Source: Escherichia coli (lineage in GTDB: Bacteria; Pseudomonadota; Gammaproteobacteria; Enterobacterales; Enterobacteriaceae). Taken from it: a DNA stretch of 64,000 nt. Where the stretch lies: assembly GCF_045037415.1 (NCBI RefSeq), contig NZ_CP173438.1. One strand, written 5' to 3'. This document shows, piece after piece, positions 3,968-23,801 of this stretch. Positions within the stretch are counted from its first letter, which is position 1, and every line of letters begins with the position of its first letter. The notes below the pieces were generated by a model. It saw nothing but the letters and a program-made list of their open reading frames with translations. It did not search any database and was not told the DNA's origin. The translations under genes were made by a program, and so were the position numbers.

Positions 3968-4864
3968 ATGGCCAAAGAAAGGGCATTAACGCTGGAAGCA
4001 CTACGGGTTATGGATGCGATCGATCGCCGGGGCAGTTTTGCGGCGGCGGCGGATGAGCTGGGACGCGTGCCTTCCGCACTTAGCTACACCATGCAAAAAC
4101 TGGAAGAAGAGCTGGATGTGGTGCTGTTTGACCGCTCGGGCCATCGCACCAAATTCACCAATGTCGGGAGGATGTTGCTGGAGCGAGGGCGCGTTTTGCT
4201 GGAAGCCGCAGATAAACTGACTACCGATGCGGAAGCCCTCGCGCGCGGTTGGGAAACGCATCTCACCATTGTGACCGAGGCGCTGGTACCGACACCTGCC
4301 TTTTTCCCGTTAATCGACAAACTGGCGGCAAAAGCCAATACCCAACTGGCAATTATCACCGAAGTGCTGGCGGGGGCGTGGGAACGGCTGGAGCAGGGGC
4401 GGGCGGATATCGTTATCGCGCCGGATATGCATTTTCGTTCCTCGTCGGAGATCAACTCGCGCAAACTCTATACCTTAATGAACGTCTATGTTGCCGCGCC
4501 GGATCACCCGATTCATCAGGAGCCGGAACCGTTATCTGAAGTGACGCGCGTGAAATATCGTGGAATTGCGGTGGCGGATACCGCTCGTGAGCGCCCGGTG
4601 TTGACCGTACAGTTGCTGGACAAACAGCCGCGCTTAACGGTGAGCACGATTGAAGATAAACGTCAGGCATTACTGGCGGGGCTTGGCGTGGCGACGATGC
4701 CGTATCCGATGGTCGAAAAAGATATTGCGGAAGGGCGGTTGCGTGTCGTCAGCCCGGAATCGACCAGCGAGATCGATATTATTATGGCCTGGCGTCGTGA
4801 CAGTATGGGGGAGGCGAAATCCTGGTGTCTGCGGGAAATTCCCAAACTTTTTAGCGGAAAATAA
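3968..4864 (+). CDS. yhaJ: LysR-family transcriptional regulator YhaJ
   Basis: 298-aa ORF with N-terminal HTH (LEALRVMDAIDRRGSFAAAADELGRVPSALSYTMQKLE), divergent from yhaK. Confidence 0.9.
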   Translation: MAKERALTLEALRVMDAIDRRGSFAAAADELGRVPSALSYTMQKLEEELDVVLFDRSGHRTKFTNVGRMLLERGRVLLEAADKLTTDAEALARGWETHLTIVTEALVPTPAFFPLIDKLAAKANTQLAIITEVLAGAWERLEQGRADIVIAPDMHFRSSSEINSRKLYTLMNVYVAAPDHPIHQEPEPLSEVTRVKYRGIAVADTARERPVLTVQLLDKQPRLTVSTIEDKRQALLAGLGVATMPYPMVEKDIAEGRLRVVSPESTSEIDIIMAWRRDSMGEAKSWCLREIPKLFSGK

Positions 4865-5550: not shown

Positions 5551-6535
5551 AACCGAAGCGAACATCTCGTCCATGCGGTTCATCGAGATCCTGCCACGGA
5601 CCAATTGAAATAATCCCCGTAGGGTTGATGGTCTTATGGCTGCGGAAGTAATGATTACGGATGTGATCGAAATTGACTGTTTCGGCAATTCCCGGCATCT
5701 GGTAGATATCGCGCAGGAAGCCATACAGATTCAGGTAATCGCTGATGCGGTGCTTATCACACTTGAAGTGGGTCACATACACTGGATCAAAACGCACCAG
5801 CGTGGTCCACAGGCGAATATCGGCTTCGGTTAGCTGGTTGCCGGTCAGGTAACGGTGCTGACCTAAAATCTGTTCCAGTCGCGCCAGCGATTCAAACACT
5901 TTCGCCACCGCCTCGTCGTAGGCTTGCTGGCTGGTGGCAAAACCGGCTTTATACACGCCATTGTTAATGGTGTCGTAAATCCAGCCGTTAAGTTCGTCAA
6001 TTTTCGGTTGCAGGGCTGGTGGGTAGTAATCTCCAGCTTTCGCACCCAGCGCATCAAACGCGGTATTGAACATGCGTATGATTTCTGCTGATTCGTTGCT
6101 GACGATGGTGTGGTTTTTTTTGTCCCACAGCACGGGAACAGTAACTCGTCCGCTGTAGTGTGGATCGGCGTGGAGATAAAGCTGATACAGAAATTCATGT
6201 TGATAGAGCGTGTCGCCGCTTGCTCCCGGAAAACTGTCATCAAAGGTCCAGCCGTTTTCCAGCATCAGCGGGTTCACTACGGAAACGGAAATAAACGGTT
6301 CCAGTCCTTTGAGCTTACGCATGATCAGCGTGCGGTGTGCCCACGGGCAGGCGAGTGAAACATAGAGATGATAACGATCTTTCTCTGCGGCAAAACCGCC
6401 TTTGCCAGTGGGGCCTGGCGCGCCATCGGCAGTGAGCCAGTTACGAAATGCGGAAGCTGAACGTTGAAATTTACCGCCGGTGGATTTGGTATCGTACCAG
6501 GTGTCATGCCAGACGCCGTCAATCAGTTGACCCAT
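5549..6535 (-). CDS. yqjG: glutathionyl-hydroquinone reductase YqjG (Xi-class GST)
   Basis: ORF ...MGQLIDGVWHDTWYDTKSTGGKFQRSASAFRNW...; start taken at MGQLIDG. Confidence 0.9.
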   Translation of the reverse strand: MGQLIDGVWHDTWYDTKSTGGKFQRSASAFRNWLTADGAPGPTGKGGFAAEKDRYHLYVSLACPWAHRTLIMRKLKGLEPFISVSVVNPLMLENGWTFDDSFPGASGDTLYQHEFLYQLYLHADPHYSGRVTVPVLWDKKNHTIVSNESAEIIRMFNTAFDALGAKAGDYYPPALQPKIDELNGWIYDTINNGVYKAGFATSQQAYDEAVAKVFESLARLEQILGQHRYLTGNQLTEADIRLWTTLVRFDPVYVTHFKCDKHRISDYLNLYGFLRDIYQMPGIAETVNFDHIRNHYFRSHKTINPTGIISIGPWQDLDEPHGRDVRFG

Positions 6536-21020: not shown

Positions 21021-21524
21021 TCAGATTTTGTCCTGCCCAAGCGACAACTGCGTTAGCCACAGCCGGGTGTCGAACTCAAGCTGGTGGTACTGCGGTTCCA
21101 TATGACAGCACAACTGGTAAAACGCTTTGTTATGCTCTTTCTCCTTCAGGTGCGCCAGCTCGTGCACCACGATCATGCGCAAAAACGGTTCCGGCGCGTT
21201 GCGAAACACGGTAGCGACGCGGATCTCTGCTTTTGCTTTCAGCTTGCCGCCCTGCACACGCGAAACGGCAGTATGTAACCCGAGCGCGTTTTTCAGCACG
21301 TGGATCTTATTGTCATACATCACTTTATTGATCGGCGGGGCATTGCGCAGAAACTGATTTTTAAGATCCTGAGTATATTGCCAGAGGGCTTTATCGGTGG
21401 CGTAGTCGTGTGTTCCCGGATAACGTTTTGCCAGCACATCGCCCAGACGCTGTTCGTTAATCAGCGTTCGCACCTGGGAAAGTAGCTGCTCGGGATAACC
21501 CTGAAGATAAGTAAGATTGCTCAT
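21021..21524 (-). CDS. ygjP: metal-dependent hydrolase YgjP (HExxH, DUF45/WLM-like)
   Basis: ..[27 protein letters not shown].. with [11 protein letters not shown] motif; start at MSNLTYL gives 167 aa. Confidence 0.85.
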
Positions 21525-21608
21525 AACCGCCCACGAAAAAGAGAAAAAGGGTATACTCACGCACCCTTTTCAGGGGCAACGTCGAAATTTTATCATTCAG
21601 GAGGGCCG

Positions 21609-22745
21609 ATGAGCCACTTAGACAACGGTTTCCGTTCACTGACACTACAACGTTTTCCGGCGACGGATGACGTTAACCCGCTACAGGCGTGGGAAGCGGC
21701 GGATGAGTATTTGCTGCAACAGTTGGACGACACAGAAATCCGCGGCCCGGTGTTGATCCTGAATGATGCTTTTGGTGCGTTAAGCTGTGTGCTGGCGGAA
21801 CATAAGCCGTACAGCATTGGCGACTCATACATCAGTGAACTGGCCACGCGCGAGAATTTACGCCTCAACGGGATTGATGAGTCGAGCGTGAAGTTTCTCG
21901 ACAGCACCGCCGACTACCCGCAACAGCCGGGTGTGGTGCTGATCAAAGTGCCGAAAACACTGGCATTGCTGGAACAACAACTGCGCGCGCTGCGCAAAGT
22001 GGTCACGCCAGATACGCGCATTATTGCTGGTGCCAAAGCCCGTGACATTCACACTTCCACGCTGGAATTGTTCGAAAAAGTGCTCGGCCCGACCACCACC
22101 ACGCTGGCATGGAAGAAAGCGCGCCTGATTAACTGCACCTTCAACGAACCGCCGTTGGCCGATGCGCCGCAGACCGTTAGCTGGAAGCTGGAAGGTACTG
22201 ACTGGACTATCCACAACCATGCGAATGTCTTCTCCCGCACCGGGCTGGATATTGGCGCGCGCTTCTTTATGCAACATCTGCCAGAGAATCTCGAAGGTGA
22301 GATTGTCGATCTCGGTTGCGGTAATGGCGTTATTGGCCTGACATTGCTCGATAAAAACCCGCAGGCGAAAGTGGTGTTTGTCGATGAATCACCGATGGCG
22401 GTTGCTTCCAGCCGTTTGAACGTTGAAACCAACATGCCCGAGGCACTGGATCGCTGCGAGTTTATGATCAACAACGCGCTTTCCGGCGTGGAGCCTTTCC
22501 GTTTTAATGCTGTGCTCTGCAACCCGCCGTTTCATCAGCAACATGCGCTGACCGATAACGTCGCCTGGGAGATGTTCCACCACGCCCGCCGCTGCCTGAA
22601 AATCAACGGCGAGCTGTATATCGTTGCCAACCGTCACTTGGATTACTTCCATAAACTGAAGAAAATTTTCGGCAACTGCACCACCATCGCCACGAATAAT
22701 AAATTTGTGGTGCTGAAAGCAGTGAAGCTGGGGCGTCGTCGGTAA
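21609..22745 (+). CDS. rlmG: 23S rRNA m2G1835 methyltransferase RlmG (YgjO)
   Basis: 378-aa [40 protein letters not shown]... with [14 protein letters not shown] motif. Confidence 0.92.
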
Positions 22746-22754
22746 GATTGAGGG

Positions 22755-22850
22755 TTACCTGCCGGATGCGGCGTAAACGCCTTATCCGGCATACGTTCAG
22801 CACATTACCCCCAGGTCGGATAAGACGCGGCAAGCGTCGCATCCGGCAAT
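22755..22850. repeat. BIME: two REP elements
   Basis: gccggatgcggcgtaaacgccttatccggc and gtcggataagacgcggcaagcgtcgcatccggc. Confidence 0.8.
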
Positions 22851-22968
22851 GTCTGCCCAGTTCTGGAATCGCGCTTCCATAAAACAAAAAATTCCTGTCA
22901 CCATCCTCTACATTCTCTTGTTTAGCGTTTTTCTACGTTTATTCTTCCGTCACACAGATAAATTCATT

Positions 22969-23017
22969 CGTTGCCAATCTGTCAACGGATGTTATCATAT
23001 TGCCAATTTGTCAACGG
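22969..23017 (+). promoter_or_regulatory. higBA promoter with two palindromic operator repeats
   Basis: CGTTGCCAATCTGTCAACGG (22969-22988) and ATTGCCAATTTGTCAACGG (22998-23017), each an inverted repeat, flanking gttatcat; directly upstream of higB ATG. Confidence 0.6.
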
Positions 23018-23029
23018 ACGTGATGAAGA

Positions 23030-23344
23030 ATGCACCTGATAACTCAAAAAGCATTGAAAGATGCTGCGGAAAAATACCCGCAACATAAAACGGAGTTGGT
23101 GGCTCTGGGGAACACGATTGCTAAGGGATATTTCAAAAAACCTGAGTCATTAAAAGCAGTATTCCCTTCTCTGGATAACTTCAAATATCTGGATAAGCAT
23201 TATGTTTTCAATGTCGGGGGCAATGAATTACGTGTTGTAGCAATGGTCTTTTTTGAATCGCAAAAGTGCTACATACGTGAAGTTATGACGCATAAAGAAT
23301 ACGATTTCTTTACCGCCGTTCATCGTACTAAGGGGAAAAAATGA
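23030..23344 (+). CDS. higB: HigB toxin (YgjN), ribosome-dependent mRNA interferase, RelE/ParE superfamily
   Basis: 104-aa ORF MHLITQKALKDAAEKYPQHKTELVALGNTIAKGYF...; toxin-first arrangement. Confidence 0.9.
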   Translation: MHLITQKALKDAAEKYPQHKTELVALGNTIAKGYFKKPESLKAVFPSLDNFKYLDKHYVFNVGGNELRVVAMVFFESQKCYIREVMTHKEYDFFTAVHRTKGKK

Positions 23345-23757
23345 TTGCGATTGCCGACATCTTGCAAGCAGGAGAAAAGCTAACTGCTGTGGCACCTTTT
23401 CTGGCGGGTATTCAGAACGAGGAACAATACACCCAGGCGCTGGAACTGGTAGATCATCTGCTGCTCAACGATCCTGAAAACCCCTTACTGGATCTGGTGT
23501 GTGCCAAAATAACCGCGTGGGAAGAATCAGCGCCCGAATTTGTGGAATTTAATGCCATGGCTCAAGCCATGCCTGGCGGTATAGCCGTGATTCGTACCCT
23601 TATGGATCAATATGGTTTAACCCTTTCCGATCTTCCGGAAATAGGCAGTAAATCGATGGTGTCACGCGTTTTGAGCGGGAAAAGGAAATTAACGCTGGAA
23701 CACGCTAAAAAACTGGCAACGCGATTCGGTATTTCTCCCGCCTTGTTTATTGATTAA
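23341..23757 (+). CDS. higA: HigA antitoxin (YgjM), HTH-XRE
   Basis: 138-aa ORF MIAIADILQAGEKLTAVAPFLAGIQNEEQYTQ...; 4-bp overlap with higB stop (ATGA). Confidence 0.9.
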   Translation: MIAIADILQAGEKLTAVAPFLAGIQNEEQYTQALELVDHLLLNDPENPLLDLVCAKITAWEESAPEFVEFNAMAQAMPGGIAVIRTLMDQYGLTLSDLPEIGSKSMVSRVLSGKRKLTLEHAKKLATRFGISPALFID

Positions 23758-23762
23758 CGCGA

Positions 23763-23787
23763 CGTGCCGGATGCGTCGCATCCGGCG
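23763..23787. repeat. REP element
   Basis: gtgccggatgcgtcgcatccggcgc. Confidence 0.75.
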
Positions 23788-23801
23788 CTTCAAACAACGA
23801 T

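Follow-up and report, generated by a model that had tools for sequence, protein, structure and literature searches.

The closest described relative of the module examined here is the higBA (ygjNM) operon of Escherichia coli K-12, a type II toxin–antitoxin system in which HigB halts growth and HigA counteracts it, as reported by Christensen-Dalsgaard, Jorgensen and Gerdes (PMC2814082). In that work, mRNA cleavage by HigB in vivo was dependent on translation. A single promoter was identified by primer extension, with putative −35 and −10 boxes and inverted repeats drawn on it, and this promoter was repressed by HigA and required Lon for induction (PMC2814082). Later structural work described a HigB–(HigA)2–HigB tetramer (PMC7160566, PMC6987408, PMC8138530). 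The N-terminal domain of HigA dimerises and binds the toxin, and its C-terminal domain binds DNA (PMC7160566); the active site of HigB is left uncovered by HigA, and HigA and HigBA have similar nanomolar affinities for the operator (PMC8138530). Here we analysed a stretch of 64,000 nucleotides of E. coli DNA (contig NZ_CP173438.1; hereafter the window) that contains a toxin-first gene pair of this kind between rlmG and fadH. We put the probability at about 95% that this locus is the known chromosomal higBA operon of E. coli and works as published for K-12.

A first-pass annotation of this DNA, made from the letters alone, had proposed a toxin-first higBA module with products of 104 and 138 amino acids and an ATGA overlap. 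The coordinates of the open reading frames agree with this proposal in every respect, and the shared ATGA lies at 23341–23344. Two other potential starts for higB, GTG at 23020 and ATG at 23023, were rejected, as they are out of frame with the 104-codon open reading frame. The annotation had also suggested profile searches against RelE/ParE-type toxins and XRE-type helix-turn-helix (HTH) proteins; in these, both products scored above the gathering thresholds. HigB matched HigB_toxin (PF09907; 78.9 bits against a cut-off of 27, E = 3.6e-22, profile positions 2–72 of 74), which was its sole Pfam match at E ≤ 0.01, and it gave no match to PF05015, the Rts1-type HigB-like family. HigA matched HTH_3 (PF01381) over residues 84–135 (31.7 bits against a cut-off of 23, E = 1.5e-07). 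This locus is a higBA module of the second class, in which the HTH is C-terminal and the toxin belongs to PF09907 and not to PF05015.

Both proteins are, to within one residue, ones that have already been characterised. Searches of the PDB returned 5IFG, 6KML, 6KMQ, 6IRP, 6JQ4 and 5YCL with E values of 1e-64 to 1e-86, including 5.9e-68 for HigB (5IFG_A) and 4.4e-86 for HigA (5IFG_B), and the matched structures carry the names mRNA interferase HigB and antitoxin HigA. HigB was identical to the protein of a K-12-type laboratory strain at 104 of 104 residues. HigA was identical at 137 of 138, and its sole change, A68V, is the only protein difference between this module and that of K-12. Codon 68 of higA (23542–23544) encodes valine in place of the K-12 alanine, in the N-terminal half of the protein that is responsible for toxin binding and dimerisation. 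With queries of 1.1 kb and 2.2 kb, we found DNA that is 100% identical to the window in many clinical E. coli chromosomes, in which RefSeq labels the genes rlmG, higB, higA and fadH; strains of the K-12 lineage were 96.5% identical over the 2.2-kb region.

The promoter region is organised as had been proposed, with two inverted repeats of 19–20 bp about 29 bp apart, a gttatcat between them and the ATG of higB 12 bp past the second, with the qualification that the repeats are imperfect (complementary pairs at 7 of 9 positions in repeat 1 and 6 of 9 in repeat 2; coordinates in Table 1). A scan for promoter consensus found a site with 10 of 12 matches whose −35 box lies within the left arm of repeat 1. 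Since repeat 2 begins right after the −10 box, it should cover the transcription start. A repeat finder reported the same arrangement as a 25-nt direct repeat (22971–22995 and 23000–23024, 88% identical, 29 bp from start to start). A single palindrome of this quality means nothing by itself: 19-mers with at least 7 of 9 complementary pairs occur 105 times in the window and about 86 times in shuffled sequences. The pair is a different matter, as these two repeats (identical at 16 of 19 positions) are the only neighbouring palindromic 19-mers in the window that resemble each other, and a pattern for the 18-nt core, with 3 mismatches allowed, matched only these two sites in 64 kb against 0.24 expected. 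The K-12 form of palindrome 1, TGGCAACG, is perfect (8+3+8), and the window has T for G at 22982, position 14 of 19. A 2016 study by Yang and colleagues is said to have found both higBA operator palindromes bound by HigA and by HigBA.

To determine how far this arrangement is conserved, we searched 100,044 species, each represented by a single genome, for two copies of TTGCCAANNTGNCAAC lying 10–16 nt apart. The scan returned 9 loci. Four of these were in Escherichia sp. E1V33, Escherichia whittamii, Pseudocitrobacter faecalis and Kluyvera georgiana. Another four (one in Paenibacillus, two in Bacteroidales and one in another member of the Bacteroidota) were discarded, as they had no relative of RlmG, HigB, HigA or FadH. 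The three of them that we inspected proved to be tandem-repeat artefacts, consisting of (TTGCCAAC)n in metagenome-assembled genomes of Bacteroidota and of a 30-nt coding repeat in Paenibacillus (positions 6120–6175, 4385–4480 and 790–900 of the respective loci). We also set aside NZ_SBHZ01000041.1, a contig of 474 bp with a coverage of 0.70 that is assigned to 'Pseudomonas khazarica' TBZ2. It carries a K-12-type operator and a HigB fragment that is the same as in E. coli at 101 of 101 residues, and is probably E. coli contamination of a Pseudomonas assembly.

We then aligned the 110 bp upstream of higB in these relatives. Apart from four islands, the Pseudocitrobacter and Kluyvera DNA was unrelated to that of E. 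coli. The first is the core of palindrome 1, TTGCCAA..TG.CAAC, which is invariant over the three genera. The second is the −10 box, which reads TATCAT or TATGAT. The third is the whole of palindrome 2, ATTGCCAATTTGTCAAC, which is invariant in E. coli, E1V33, Pseudocitrobacter and Kluyvera down to its asymmetric T. The fourth is a stretch, TGATGAAGAATG, whose last bases are the start codon. Both predicted operator sites and the promoter assignment gain support from this footprint, and it is mildly new in pointing to both operators being functional. Together with the published autorepression by HigA (PMC2814082) and operator binding (PMC8138530, PMC7160566), it also bears out the earlier suggestion that the repeats are operators. 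The promoter geometry and the conservation of both palindromes across genera fit autorepression via these operators, binding itself being predicted for this allele.

The one base that breaks the symmetry of palindrome 1 in the window was also found outside E. coli. The perfect inverted repeat (TGGCAAC) occurs in K-12, Kluyvera and Pseudocitrobacter, and the version with T (TGTCAAC) in the window, E1V33 and E. whittamii; the sharing of T by these three indicates a G/T polymorphism of long standing. We infer that the substitution is tolerated in this allele. The exact promoter allele of the window is present in 813 complete E. coli genomes, including that of an O25b:H4 strain of sequence type 131 (ST131), and the module in the window is, by its sequence, an ST131-like allele of chromosomal higBA.

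Table 1. Positions of the higBA module, its control elements and its surroundings in the window
Feature	Position	Strand	Description
higB (ygjN)	23030–23344	+	104 aa; RelE-superfamily toxin
higA (ygjM)	23341–23757	+	138 aa; antitoxin/repressor with C-terminal XRE-type HTH
Sigma-70-type promoter	22971–22998	+	−35 TTGCCA (22971–22976), 16-nt spacer, TG-extended −10 TATCAT (22993–22998)
Repeat 1	22969–22988		CGTTGCCAATCTGTCAACGG
Repeat 2	22999–23017		ATTGCCAATTTGTCAACGG
Operator palindrome 1	22969–22987		CGTTGCCAATCTGTCAACG; overlaps the −35 box
Operator palindrome 2	22998–23016		Core TTGCCAATTTGTCAAC (23000–23015); right after the −10 box, over the expected transcription start
325-bp segment lost in the deletion state	22942–23266		higA kept
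Upstream REP pair	22760–22848		Inverted repeats (about 22760–22791 and 22817–22848); REP core matches at 22761, 22778 and 22835
Downstream REP hairpin	23761–23791		Single inverted repeat; REP core matches at 23766 and 23774; contains the right copy of the 14-bp repeat
14-bp direct repeat GCGTCGCATCCGGC	22834–22847 (left), 23773–23786 (right)	+ (left copy)	Spacing 939
rlmG (ygjO)	21609–22745	+	23S rRNA m2G1835 methyltransferase, 378 aa; Pfam MTS 1.3e-60; RefSeq rlmG; upstream neighbour
fadH (ygjL)	23802–25820	−	2,4-dienoyl-CoA reductase, 672 aa; Oxidored_FMN 4.4e-114; RefSeq fadH; convergent downstream neighbour

The genes on either side, rlmG and fadH, are outside the module and mark a conserved chromosomal site. 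The order rlmG–higB–higA–fadH was also found in E1V33 (a cryptic Escherichia species), P. faecalis and K. georgiana, and in E. whittamii, in which the examined stretch ends at this point, the operator pair comes immediately after rlmG. In these relatives, identity to the proteins of the window was 88–89% for RlmG, 87.5–88% for FadH, 82.6% for HigA and 69–81% for HigB. An open reading frame of 179 codons (21021–21560, minus strand) that is divergent from rlmG is also kept beside rlmG in Pseudocitrobacter and Kluyvera.

The surroundings of the module contain repetitive extragenic palindromic (REP) elements, which are imperfect GC-rich palindromes here. Their core, GCCGGATGCGGCG, was matched 21 times in the window, where 3.5 matches would be expected, and the median number of places matched by the 1.1-kb query was 12 in each E. 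coli genome. The first-pass annotation had placed the module between two REP clusters. This was right for the upstream side, which has two REP units; the downstream side has a single hairpin and no cluster. A search of 22400–24100 against Rfam found no RNA gene, giving only sub-threshold matches to naRNA4 and one meaningless match to a CRISPR repeat (E = 0.89). The naRNA4 matches, to a REP325-derived nucleoid-associated RNA, were to the upstream REP pair (22754–22898), scored 26–38 bits against a gathering score of 59.5 and simply reflect the REP nature of that pair.

We found that the locus exists in three states among 5426 complete E. coli genomes. It is intact, with the promoter and the 5′ part of higB present, in 2847 (about 52%). 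About 1520 genomes (about 28%) carry a 325-bp deletion that takes away the promoter, both operators and codons 1–79 of higB, leaving a 25-codon remnant of higB and an orphan higA that is itself intact. The remaining state, an empty site without higBA, accounts for about 1057 genomes (about 19%). In the one deletion strain that was checked, GABEEC132 (positions 1037–1533 of the stretch compared), the orphan HigA was identical to K-12 HigA. The 11 deletion alleles sampled all spanned 1876 bp and the 7 empty alleles sampled all spanned 1262 bp, and this uniformity suggests one event per state. When the empty allele of strain GN06758 was aligned (around 846–964), exactly 939 bp were absent, which is the spacing of the two copies of GCGTCGCATCCGGC, and one copy was retained. 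This indicates a deletion between short direct repeats, from REP to REP.

These states bear on the origin of the module, whose REP flanks, according to the first-pass annotation, would fit an acquired cassette. In its recent form, this reading would have a mobile cassette enter the rlmG–fadH interval, its boundaries marked by the REP elements. Consistent with this, the locus is polymorphic in E. coli, toxins of the HigB family occur on more than 1000 plasmids and in a few phages, and the 14-bp direct repeat around the absent segment could in principle be a target duplication. However, higBA occupies the same rlmG–fadH site in three genera, and its proteins have diverged to the same order as the flanking RlmG and FadH. 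Together these findings argue for an old resident and not for a recent insertion bounded by REP elements. In Kluyvera, moreover, the gap between higA and fadH is 12 bp, too short for a REP, which indicates that the REP elements are later additions in Escherichia. Comparison of the REP junctions with a strain lacking higBA, which had been suggested as a check, placed the junction inside the 14-bp REP repeat, and this, with the same span in every sampled empty site, fits one deletion through recombination of the direct repeats. We consider recent acquisition quite unlikely. Two single deletions, one of which took place between REP repeats, account better for the presence and absence of higBA in E. 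coli than acquisition does, and we conclude that higBA has long resided in the chromosome and that part of the species has since lost it or keeps it in crippled form.

A recent origin from a plasmid was examined separately and rejected: the plasmid homologues are almost all about 29–40% identical to HigB, and 1045 of 1056 records are below 60%. Only two plasmid matches reached at least 99% identity, and at least one of these is a chromosome filed as a plasmid (NZ_CP141089.1, a 4.94-Mb E. coli chromosome that is entered in PLSDB). Relatives of HigB in phages were few. That higBA was acquired long ago and then spread by way of homology in its flanks is still conceivable, since the site comparison took in Kluyvera, Pseudocitrobacter and Escherichia, with Salmonella, Citrobacter, Escherichia albertii and Escherichia fergusonii outside it.

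How the old resident would act can be outlined from the published work. One sigma-70 promoter would yield a bicistronic mRNA with the toxin gene first. HigB would be a ribosome-dependent mRNA endonuclease of the RelE superfamily, and HigA a fully folded antitoxin whose dimer would bind HigB N-terminally, giving HigB–(HigA)2–HigB, and would contact DNA through its C-terminal XRE HTH. With or without HigB, HigA dimers would sit on the two similar palindromes, block RNA polymerase and thereby autorepress the operon. Judging from the geometry, HigA on palindrome 1 would occlude the −35 box and HigA on palindrome 2 the start site. On derepression, free HigB would be expected to cleave translated mRNAs. 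For this window, our analysis established the gene structure, the protein families, the identity to characterised proteins, the geometry of promoter and operators, operator conservation and synteny. Toxicity, neutralisation, mRNA cleavage, autorepression, Lon dependence and operator binding would carry over from the literature on the K-12 pair.

Several observations weigh against a simple transfer of the K-12 account to this locus. The antitoxin scored 18.7 bits against the NCBIfam equivalog TIGR02607 (antidote_HigA), under the cut-off of 47.7, and so by its profile scores is a HigA in name and gene order and not a member of TIGR02607. The allele differs from the one assayed in K-12 by the T-for-G change in palindrome 1 and by A68V in HigA. 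The sources on DNA binding conflict, with HigBA found to bind more tightly in one (PMC7160566) and the affinity found to be unchanged in another (PMC8138530). Finally, the HigB-like toxin SehA of Salmonella was reported to inhibit RNase III and not to cleave mRNA (PMC12817084), and the mechanism is therefore not uniform among HigB-like toxins.

If the last of these observations extended to the window, HigB would not be an mRNA interferase and would instead, like SehA, bind RNase III, block rRNA maturation and slow growth. HigBA of E. coli and Shigella, to which SehA is homologous, served as the model for it, and SehB, the partner of SehA, is 46% identical to HigA (PMC7160566); SehA was reported to lack endoribonuclease activity (PMC12817084). 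However, K-12 HigB, which is identical to the protein studied here, produced translation-dependent mRNA cleavage in vivo (PMC2814082), and PF09907 toxins are classed as ribosome-dependent and mRNA-degrading (PMC11980606). We regard a SehA-like mode of action as very unlikely here and retain the published K-12 mechanism. Least credible of all is that the repeats bind no protein and arose only by chance or when promoter DNA was duplicated in tandem: the frequency of single imperfect palindromes is close to chance and the likeness in E. coli does reach past the palindromic core, as it would after a duplication, but both cores are kept in three genera while the surrounding and intervening DNA has diverged apart from the −10 box, the pair is unique in the window, and HigA represses the promoter in vivo (PMC2814082) and binds the operator in vitro (PMC7160566, PMC8138530).

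Publications from 2009–2010 onwards have described the operon, the activity of its toxin, its autoregulation and its structures, and RefSeq annotates the genes routinely; the finding is a correct rediscovery of a known system. In addition to the footprint, two points are mildly new: the locus occurs as three haplotypes, one of which leaves a widespread orphan higA, and palindrome 1 of the ST131-type allele has a base that breaks its symmetry. These old haplotypes may matter in two ways, both of which we advance tentatively and consider unlikely. If cells still produce the orphan HigA, for instance by read-through from rlmG, it could be a stand-alone regulator or could neutralise incoming toxins of the HigB family. 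The T in palindrome 1, for its part, could shift the set-point of higBA repression in the pandemic ST131 lineage.

Among described systems, the module can be compared with HigBA of Proteus vulgaris Rts1 and HigBA/GraTA of Pseudomonas. It shares with these the toxin-first order, two operator sites that overlap the promoter, the HigB–(HigA)2–HigB assembly (PMC6987408, PMC8138530) and a folded HTH antitoxin that leaves the active site of the toxin uncovered. By contrast, those systems have a PF05015 toxin and a TIGR02607 HigA whose HTH is N-terminal, whereas it is C-terminal here (PMC6987408). SehAB of Salmonella Typhimurium is a HigBA-like, toxin-first pair, with the 46% identity of its antitoxin noted above and two palindromes on the −35 and −10 boxes (PMC7160566), but it lies at another locus and its toxin is the reported RNase III inhibitor (PMC12817084). 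HigBA of Shigella flexneri (5YCL) is almost identical in both proteins (1.6e-64 and 2.7e-84) and has the same layout, dimerising through the N-terminal domain and carrying the HTH at the C-terminal end (PMC7160566); its crystallised chains are slightly shorter constructs, and nothing of substance differs. The module of the window is closest to HigB–HigA of E. coli K-12 (YgjN–YgjM, b3083/b3082; 5IFG, 6KML, 6KMQ, 6IRP and 6JQ4). The DNA upstream of higB differs in that palindrome 1 has TGTCAACG in place of the K-12 sequence, so that it is not a perfect 8+3+8 palindrome, and in one more base just upstream of it (22968), and the two operons share the same chromosomal site, the same promoter, the same palindrome 2 and the same spacing.

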